Assembly: GCA_964016885.1 (NCBI GenBank)
Contig: OZ024749.1
Location: forward strand, 33,790,001-33,854,000
DNA length: 64,000 bases
Direction: 5' to 3'
Source of the DNA: Eledone cirrhosa
Lineage: Eukaryota
Part shown: positions 1,403-3,343 of the stretch, in pieces
How positions within the stretch are numbered: the stretch's first letter is position 1
Layout of the letters: each line of letters begins with the position of its first letter
Notes under the pieces: model-generated
Seen by the model: the letters and a program-made list of their open reading frames with translations, nothing else
Told to the model about the DNA's origin: nothing
Database searches by the model: none
Program-made: the position numbers and the translations under genes

Positions 1403-1830
1403 TAACAAAGGAATTGTGGTAAGGAACCAGATGGACTATAACGCACCAGAGTACTCAATACTTAGGGTAGTAGAGTGAGAAATAGGAAAAAGTATGACCC
1501 CGACGGCAGAGCTCAAGCCGTTTCGACGGCTATTTCTGGCTATTTCGACGGCTATTTTCTGAGTCCAGAAACAGCCGTCGAAACGGCTTGAGCTCTGCCG
1601 TCGGGGTCATACTTTTTCCTATATATATATATATATATATATAGGAACAAGTAAGACCCCGACGGCTGAGCTCAAGCCGTTTCGACGGCTAGTCCAGAAT
1701 TAGCCGTCGAAACGGCTTGAGCACAGCCGTCGGGGTCTTACTTGTTCCTATTACCCACTCTACTACCCTAAGTATTGAGTACTTTGGTGCGTTATAGTCC
1801 ACCTGGTTCCTTACCACATTTCCTTCGTTA
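1403..1830. mobile_element. Two fold-back copies of repeat family H3 (hammerhead 3' half), in mirror arrangement
   Basis: GAAACGGCTTGAGCTCAGCCGTCGGGG motif with inverted copies; the family also occurs at 322-380, 3146-3343, 20682-20871, 29717-29824, 54113-54205, 56448-56705 and 63824-63879. Confidence 0.75.
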
Positions 1831-3145
1831 TATATATATACATAACAGAGTGAGAGCGAATCAATTGGAGATTTTAAAGATAATGCGACGGAAAAAAAAC
1901 CCTTACATAAATATGCGTCTTACATTAATATCTGTATATAGAATGGGGAGACATATTTATGTAGTATTTTAGTATGTTTATACATTTCAACACATATCAA
2001 TTAAATTACTAATAAGCAAGTAGCATAAATGTATATATTAAATGAGCGACTACGTAAACAAATAGGAATTGAGTATTATATTATTATGTAGTTCCTGTTT
2101 GACATTTATGGACTATGTGTATGTATAAATGTATATGTATATATATATATATATATGAATGTATATATATATATATATATATATATATATATATATATAT
2201 ATATATGTACATTCATATATATATATATGTATATATATATATATATATATATATGAATGTATATATATATATGCATTCTTATGAGTCGGTGATTGCGTTT
2301 ATTCGCGTAGATATTTCCGGACACACCAAGAATGATTATTATTAAAGCATAGAAAAAAAGACGTTAGTCCATAGATAGACTTTGACAAACGTCTCAAGGA
2401 CATCAGCTACGTTTTTAACATATGGGTTACCATACTTTATGTGAAGATTTGAACATAATTTTAATTACTTGAACTTATATTCCTAATCTGAACCAAAGAC
2501 ATTAAGCGAATGAATATTACTCTAACGAAACAGTTGACTTCTAAACAATAAACGGAGGAGTGTACATAGAGGTTAATTTGATCTGTAAATGCGTTACAGA
2601 GAACTGGGATACGTTTCGTGTTTATCAAACATCATCAGTGAAGTATAATCAACACACAGCTACAAAATCATCTATACGATTAAAATATTTAATAAAGATA
2701 TTGTTGTCTTGTTGTTTTGTGAAAATAATGTGCCAACTGTGTTGAGCTTCATGTACAGGCTCCCATATTTAATAAGACGAGCTAAAAATGATTTCTTCAT
2801 TCAAGAAATACATAGATACATAGATACATATATACATACATATATATATATATATATGTACATGTATGTATATATATATCTGTACATATATATATATAGA
2901 GATCTGTACATATATATATATATATATATATATATATATATATGTGTGTATATATATATATACATATATATATATATATACATATATATATATATATACA
3001 TATATATATATATATATATATATATATATATATATATATATATACATGTATATATATATATACACATATATATATATATATATATATATATATATATATA
3101 TATATATACATATATATATATATATATACATATATATATATATAT

Positions 3146-3343
3146 AACGAAGGAAGTGTGGTAAGGAACCAGGTGGACCATAGCATACCAGAGTACTCAA
3201 TACTTAGGGTAGTAGAGTGGGTAATAGGACATTTTTCAAGACCCCGACTACAAATCTCAAGTCGTTTCAACGGCTATTTCTGGACTAATTTAGTCCAGAA
3301 ATAACCGTCGAAACGGCTTGAGCTCTGCCGTCGGGGTCTTGAA
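3146..3343. mobile_element. Family H3 fold-back copy
   Basis: Same sequence as 1403-1621; axis hairpin ATTTCTGGACTAATTTAGTCCAGAAAT. Confidence 0.7.

Follow-up and report, generated by a model that had tools for sequence, protein, structure and literature searches.

Inverted stubs of a Penelope-like element in Eledone cirrhosa and their probable origin from two head-to-head cDNAs

The H3 repeats of Eledone cirrhosa are short stubs of the pLTR of an autonomous Penelope-like element (PLE). The probable route is that reverse transcription is primed by the two ends of a cut (TA)n target, at two fixed positions on the element's RNA, and that the run-off cDNAs are joined head to head. At stake are how PLEs form inverted termini and whether PLE hammerheads cut in vivo, and the H3 family provides more than 19,000 independent junctions together with an intact parent.

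Results

We analysed a 64,000-nt stretch of E. cirrhosa contig OZ024749.1 (positions 33,790,001 to 33,854,000; hereafter the window). The first-pass annotation had placed five inverted H3 copies in it, and all five were recovered at the same coordinates, each bearing GAAA-CGGCT-loop-AGCCG-TC-GGGG and each with CTGANGA missing upstream. Genome-wide, exact junctions of the form GCCGTTTCGAC-N0-80-GTCGAAACGGC number 19,073, against 0 for the reversed-pattern control, and H3 inversion is therefore far beyond chance. Each copy reads (TA)n, inverted arm, variable junction, direct arm, (TA)n. We number the unit from the A of the TTAGTC/TCAGTC motif (+1); 'short' arms end at +61, and 'long' arms end at +139 and carry a 78-nt tail.

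In the first copy, a minus-strand long arm with its tail (1404..1539; unit +4 to +139) is followed by a strandless junction filler that repeats short pieces of the neighbouring arm sequence (1540..1561) and by a plus-strand short arm (1562..1622; +1 to +61), with a G before this arm and (TA)n after it. The second joins a minus-strand short arm (1641..1691; +11 to +61) to a plus-strand long arm (1691..1829; +1 to +139), which runs from an initiator-like start at 1691 through the helix II 3' strand, GAAA at 1709 and helix III into the tail. Its predicted hammerhead cleavage site, GUC^G (1729..1732, plus strand), lies between 1731 and 1732, or unit +41/+42, as judged from the structure and from other copies, in which 5' ends pile up at +42. 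The third has a diverged minus-strand long arm that reaches +1 or a few bases past it (3146..3286) and a plus-strand short arm with a degenerate 3' end (3290..3343). In the fourth, a minus-strand short arm (20681..20735; +7 to +61) overlaps a plus-strand long arm (20734..20870; +3 to +139) by 2 nt. Copies of an older subfamily join a minus-strand short arm that reaches +1 to a truncated plus-strand long arm (+94 to +139) at 29717..29824, and a minus-strand short arm to a short, diverged plus-strand long arm at 54110..54204. At 56448..56705, also of the older subfamily, a minus-strand short arm is followed by a plus-strand short arm and a tandem plus-strand long arm. Here the short arm ends near +57 and the second unit restarts at -2, a single case whose layout suggests that run-off at the start of the RNA preceded a jump to the short priming site, a possible route to partial tandems. 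A lone plus-strand short arm (63824..63880; +5 to +61) and a lone minus-strand tail fragment that had been overlooked (323..380; +82 to +139) complete the set. Three copies, at 29717, 54113 and 63824, had been described as simply ending at the hairpin. This holds for the lone arm at 63824; the other two are inverted pairs with a clipped second (long) arm, at 29779-29824 and 54172-54204.

The window contains other fold-backs. One at 53935-54092 had been said to end its left arm within helix II; by eye, that arm extends about 3 nt beyond the putative helix II strand and ends just within the putative loop II. H3 queries gave no match there in the window, and the copy, whose right arm retains CTGACGA, looks like an old single fold-back, apparently of another family. 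Further fold-backs lie at 408-936 and 29498-29661, and several repeat families contribute hammerhead-like motifs with canonical CTGANGA, at 207, 561/783, 5227, 18992, 19878, 29600, 29989, 41259, 55315, 56804 and 63218.

The parent of H3 is intact at one locus (L168), which bears out the earlier view of H3 as a PLE terminus with half a hammerhead. It has the order pLTR, open reading frame (ORF) for an RT and a putative GIY-YIG endonuclease, pLTR; the tail continues into the ORF (Met at +232, 719 amino acids), and the second pLTR follows. Direct pLTRs, partial tandems, an inverted 5'-truncated copy and the tail are all present (L168, with tandems at L175). Among 30 examined loci of the 66 matched by the tail, 6 share non-inverted upstream sequence and none shares sequence 3' of the tail. 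The ORF carries YRDD, and Pfam and PDB sequence searches with it returned nothing relevant. An AlphaFold model of the 719-residue protein (112 sequences; pLDDT 93) had TERT as its first Foldseek match (E 3.9e-8); by YRDD and this fold match, the parent has a single ORF with a telomerase-related RT. The ORF also has a VIY...YIG motif with E and N downstream, and PF01541 was found in look-alike clusters and one homologue; the protein itself gave no direct Pfam match for GIY-YIG, with no nuclease among the fold matches listed. DKT, CxCX5C, CxxC/CxH, the lack of CCHH and the (TA)n target agree with the description of the Hydra clade in the available text of PMC8557442, and RWR replaces RWK. By these motifs, set against the published description, the parent fits the Hydra clade of C-terminal EN+ PLEs.

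Other routes and readings were set aside. A GIY-YIG family search did not reach the parent; 2 of 30 loci had H3 pieces. H3 as a MITE or fold-back DNA transposon with symmetric TIRs was rejected on its asymmetric fixed ends, its distinct junctions (43 of 47) and its RT-bearing parent. H3 as a non-LTR retrozyme was rejected because the stubs have half a ribozyme and the full cores examined lie in ORF-bearing or 5'-truncated element copies. At L176 (G000:C1:21325400-21331600), pieces of the H3-parent pLTR enclose an inverted pair of a different element whose GIY-YIG domain is recognisable.

The hammerhead of the parent is complete and reads, in order, ACCCC, TTGANAA, G, two bases, CGGCTA, a loop of about 37 nt, TAGCCG-TC and GAAA. 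H3 had been thought to have lost CUGANGA, with complete copies expected to read CCCC-CTGANGA-CGGCT. Neither idea survives: long copies carry TTGANAA between ACCCC and CGGCTA, a UUGANAA (U3-A8) core, and CUGANGA was never there. The full-core pattern occurs in 5,670 arms genome-wide, and 118 arms of the older subfamily have the same core with a different loop. Among 55 distinct full-core loci, 47 have U3-A8, 6 C3/A8 and 2 U3/G8. Arranged as a type I hammerhead with three helices around the core, 90.8% of cells are paired over 12 copies (slid controls, at most 50%), and a compensatory change in helix II, from G-C to A-U, occurs in 4 copies of one (older) subfamily. Minimum-energy unconstrained folding gave the hammerhead shape for 1 of 4 copies. 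The best 150 of 250 Rfam matches include no hammerhead; they are mostly hairpin and microsatellite, all below the gathering score. A U3-A8 variant is published from the Cercyon PLEs of Schistosoma (PMC4209133, available portion), and searches for CUGANGA only will overlook the H3 ribozyme. Searches for CTGANGA upstream of H3 gave 49 and 10 matches, which were junction filler, neighbouring repeats or other ribozyme families with no consistent parent. Two more hammerhead families have complete CTGANGA cores (L051, L054 and L060; L055, L057 and L058). A subfamily with the mismatched C3/A8 core (L139, L155, L174 and L247), a natural ribozyme mutant, yet has many long and short copies.

To place the 5' ends of arms we used a sample of 1,134,000 bases chosen by position, comprising the window and 107 further stretches, of which 75 lie close to it on its own contig. 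Of 162 3'-anchored arms, 108 end at -7..+12; 3 reach the core, and 8 end at -59..-8, 15 at +13..+39, 9 at +40..+44 and 19 further 3'. Genome-wide, 30,859 arms extend to +1 and 5,670 to the core, a rough ratio because the two patterns differ. Position +1 lies within an initiator-like word (judged by the initiator consensus) in both subfamily groups, but the match is short and the search pattern for the older subfamily required that word. G stands at -1 in 13 of 52 core-less short arms, 3 of them explicable by the partner arm, versus 0 of 47 full-core arms. Reverse transcription of an RNA cap can leave an extra G. Our literature search found no paper on a cap copied in this way. Scored by eye in the first 50 of 5,046 junctions with both arms reaching +1, the arm is followed by A in 69 cases, C in 13, G in 12 and T in 6, and C follows both arms in 4 copies. 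We infer that the main pile marks a capped transcription start inside loop II of the ribozyme, probably a short cluster, as many arms extend to -3 to -5. Start sites within pLTRs have been reported for Penelope and Chlamys-3 (PMC8557442, available text).

Three further arguments about this position were discarded: a TATA-like motif at -29/-31 is missing from the older subfamily; a 5' limit set by a 3' splice site at TTTAG conflicts with arms that contain the AG and have no common upstream exon; and a rise in summed contig depth near +1 (contigs, 4 runs) reflects contig depth, not copy number. Some junctions have long A/T runs straight after +1, which suggests slippage on the T-run at the RNA start.

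A second pile of 5' ends lies at the predicted cut. Palindromes that turn within 24 nt of the G-run past this site number 1,016 (control, 7). Among the first 50, scored by eye, both arms end exactly at +42 with non-parent filler in 14 and without a spacer in 3, one pairs +42 with +41, 4 have one arm at or adjoining +42, and 28 are centred on helix III. The three without a spacer can be explained by CG overlap without cutting. Extrapolated from these 50 places on one contig, copies with both arms ending at +42 number roughly 300-370 genome-wide. Arms ending at +43 gave only 59 matches genome-wide (control, 3 per strand), and few ends fall between +41 and helix III. A step at exactly +42 is expected of a 3' cleavage product, and a stall at helix III would keep C41; we infer from this sequence pattern that the pile consists of the 3' fragments left when the ribozyme cleaves itself in read-through RNA. 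The subfamily whose parents mostly have the mismatched C3/A8 core (6 of 8) also yields arms ending at +42, and so this natural dead-ribozyme control gives no support for cleavage. The helix III-centred palindromes (about 28 of 50) agree with fold-back or later deletion, and this class, about 3% of the main class, is the only one in which a ribozyme hairpin may steer the junction.

The same sample holds 47 head-to-head pairs: 42 long with short, none long with long, none short with short and 5 with an untyped arm. All 42 typed pairs, mostly in (TA)n, thus combine an arm that ends at +61 with one that ends at +139, and TAT occurs at both priming points in the parent, in keeping with the (TA)n target. 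Junction strings are distinct (43 among 47 pairs), and the subfamily marker is common to both arms in 27 of the 36 pairs that could be scored, against 6.3 expected, and the remaining 9 differ by 1-2 bases. Distinct junctions with matching markers indicate that the inversion arises anew at each insertion, from a single source. The central loop is at most 2 nt in 16 of 47 junctions (3 not scorable), which agrees with two ends annealing at self-complementary words.

We also mapped 11 long loci, chosen as close inverted pairs among full-core matches: 9 are long-short inverted pairs, one is a tandem (L175) and one has two long-type ends (L169). In the 9 inverted copies, the short arm extends further 5' in 5, by up to 2.4 kb (L177), and the long arm in 4. 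The short arm lacks the tail template for the long arm, and a short arm cannot outrun its template; two cDNAs follow from this. Among short pairs (n=39), the long arm is further 5' in 22, the short arm in 9 and neither in 8; a longer long arm would also be expected from snap-back, and later deletions could blur the picture of arm lengths. Recurring junctions such as TAATTC/AGTCC are compatible with either model. At L169 (G000:C4:165700000-165707000), both long-type ends have the same downstream flank, which suggests a later fold-back duplication or an assembly effect.

Discussion

In the route that we favour, both broken ends of the (TA)n target would prime cDNA, at +61 and +139; both cDNAs would run off the RNA 5' end, and repair would join them head to head. 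Polymerase theta repair may be the source of the repeated junction fillers. Transcripts starting in loop II would contain only the 3' half of the ribozyme, with both priming sites within 140 nt of the start, and priming near their 5' end would give stubs, like the retroviral strong-stop product. Read-through RNA would hold the whole ribozyme; when cleaved it would yield the +42 stubs, and when uncleaved and primed at the downstream pLTR, the long copies. More tentatively, and with somewhat less than even confidence, we propose that the element starts transcription inside its own ribozyme, such that the 5' copy could not cut and the 3' copy could; cleavage would then strip the mRNA of its 3' priming sites, divert priming to the 5' leader and flood the genome with strong-stop stubs.

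The first-pass annotation had instead proposed that nascent cDNA snaps back at ribozyme helix II and primes itself. Self-priming has been put forward for PLE palindromes (in the available text of PMC3846280), the parent has a real helix II, and breakpoints do cluster near it. The predicted clustering stood, at -7..+12 in loop II, but helix II as its cause did not: in long copies the true 5' strand of helix II sits upstream of +1, at a distance of 33-35 nt, and the breakpoints stop short of it, with arms ending inside the loop. The hairpin read as helix II, GACGGCT...AGCCGTC, is the centre of a palindrome whose arms are about 60 bp each; it would arise from any inversion at this place, so that it cannot by itself reveal a helix II hot spot. 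Snap-back at helix II must retain the whole of loop II between the arms, and such a product has 1 genome match against 19,073 junctions, which refutes it as the main route; nor could one self-copied cDNA give a tail-less arm that extends further 5', as in 5 of 9 long inverted copies. We regard this route as highly improbable. A broader single-cDNA scheme, in which the cDNA runs off the RNA 5' end, turns back on itself at a short microhomology and serves as its own template before the endonuclease opens the hairpin at +61, seems to us unlikely rather than implausible. It would record the same RNA ends, but with a single priming event, and it accounts for arms that match within a copy, for the further 5' reach of the long arm in 22 of 39 short pairs and for some junctions with a 4-bp inverted microhomology and a 6-nt loop. 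Against it, the short arm exceeds the long by those 2.4 kb or less in 5 of 9 long copies, neither arm can copy the other because the tail exists only on the long arm, and loops of at most 2 nt (16 of 47) and an extra G on both arms of some copies fit it poorly.

Two cDNAs might also be joined with the piles marking not RNA ends but stalls of the RT at RNA structure, or repair trimming, at favoured sequences (C-run/G-run, AATT and GTAC). Self-complementary words do attract junctions, and the mismatched-core subfamily gives +42 ends all the same. The main pile, however, lies in a loop, beyond helix II, and has the extra G; an RT halted at the base of helix III should leave C41 in place, but both arms lack it in 14 of 50; and +42 sharply exceeds both neighbouring positions. 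We consider this reading unlikely. Stereotyped size, (TA)n flanks and very high copy number would suit a palindromic MITE-like element amplified from one fold-back master, and it had been held that longest copies without CUGANGA would mean just such a repeat. That test misleads, since long copies do lack CUGANGA yet their core is the U3-A8 variant UUGANAA. Differing junctions (43 of 47), several subfamilies with arms that match within each, an autonomous RT-bearing parent and kilobase copies with the same two ends leave amplification from one master with hardly any credibility.

The PLE layout, the tail, two start sites, the U3-A8 core and the clade are already published. In our literature searches of main texts, we found no mapping of PLE inversion points to an RNA start or cut site, and the available part of bioRxiv 10.64898/2026.07.22.740005 has no bearing on breakpoints. 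The activity and in vivo role of PLE hammerheads have been called 'still a mystery' (PMC7761336, available text), and copies ending at +42, if they are ribozyme products, would be rare evidence of cutting in a living animal. H3 makes base-exact predictions: a cap at -5..+1, a cut at +41/+42 and priming at +61 and +139. If the proposal is right, tens of thousands of junctions would be a base-exact fossil record of cap site, in vivo cleavage and two-ended priming, which would explain PLE inverted termini. H3 stubs can also pass for MITEs or miRNA hairpins.

Retroviral minus-strand strong-stop DNA is a short run-off cDNA from a priming site near the RNA 5' end, and L1 twin priming uses two primers from one target break. 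Both offer an analogy only: the two H3 arms copy the same stretch of RNA, and both are integrated. Closer parallels lie among the PLEs. In the available text of PMC3846280 and PMC8557442, EN+ PLEs share with H3 a head-to-head inverted 5'-truncated pLTR, a one-sided tail, partial tandems, AT-rich targets and a putative TATA/Inr in the pLTR; their tail is 30-40 nt versus 78 nt in H3, in which most copies are pure pLTR stubs. PMC3846280 proposes self-priming on an antisense template, a model left untested there, whereas the H3 data favour two cDNAs from sense RNA. The Hydra families are described with canonical hammerheads (PMC8557442), unlike the H3 parent with its U3-A8 core and loop II of about 37 nt. 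Cercyon, as far as the available part of PMC4209133 describes it, resembles H3 in U3-A8 for C3-G8, a G10.1-C11.1 pair, unpaired bases at the start of helix II, a palindromic loop 3 and opposite-strand pairs 100-700 bp apart; H3 differs in a full rather than minimal helix III of 5-6 bp and in a long loop II with a likely start site. The protein of PAc (Poseidon, Anolis) cuts and extends both strands in vitro, and two start sites bound its tail (PMC11167929), which agrees with the two-cDNA reading of H3. The two elements would then have in common a pair of internal RT start sites on either side of the tail, and cutting and extension of both strands, besides an AT-rich target. For PAc no RNA reads ending at the cut site were found and uncleaved RNA was taken as the main substrate (PMC11167929); in H3, by contrast, the predicted cut site is the exact end of a minority of genomic copies.
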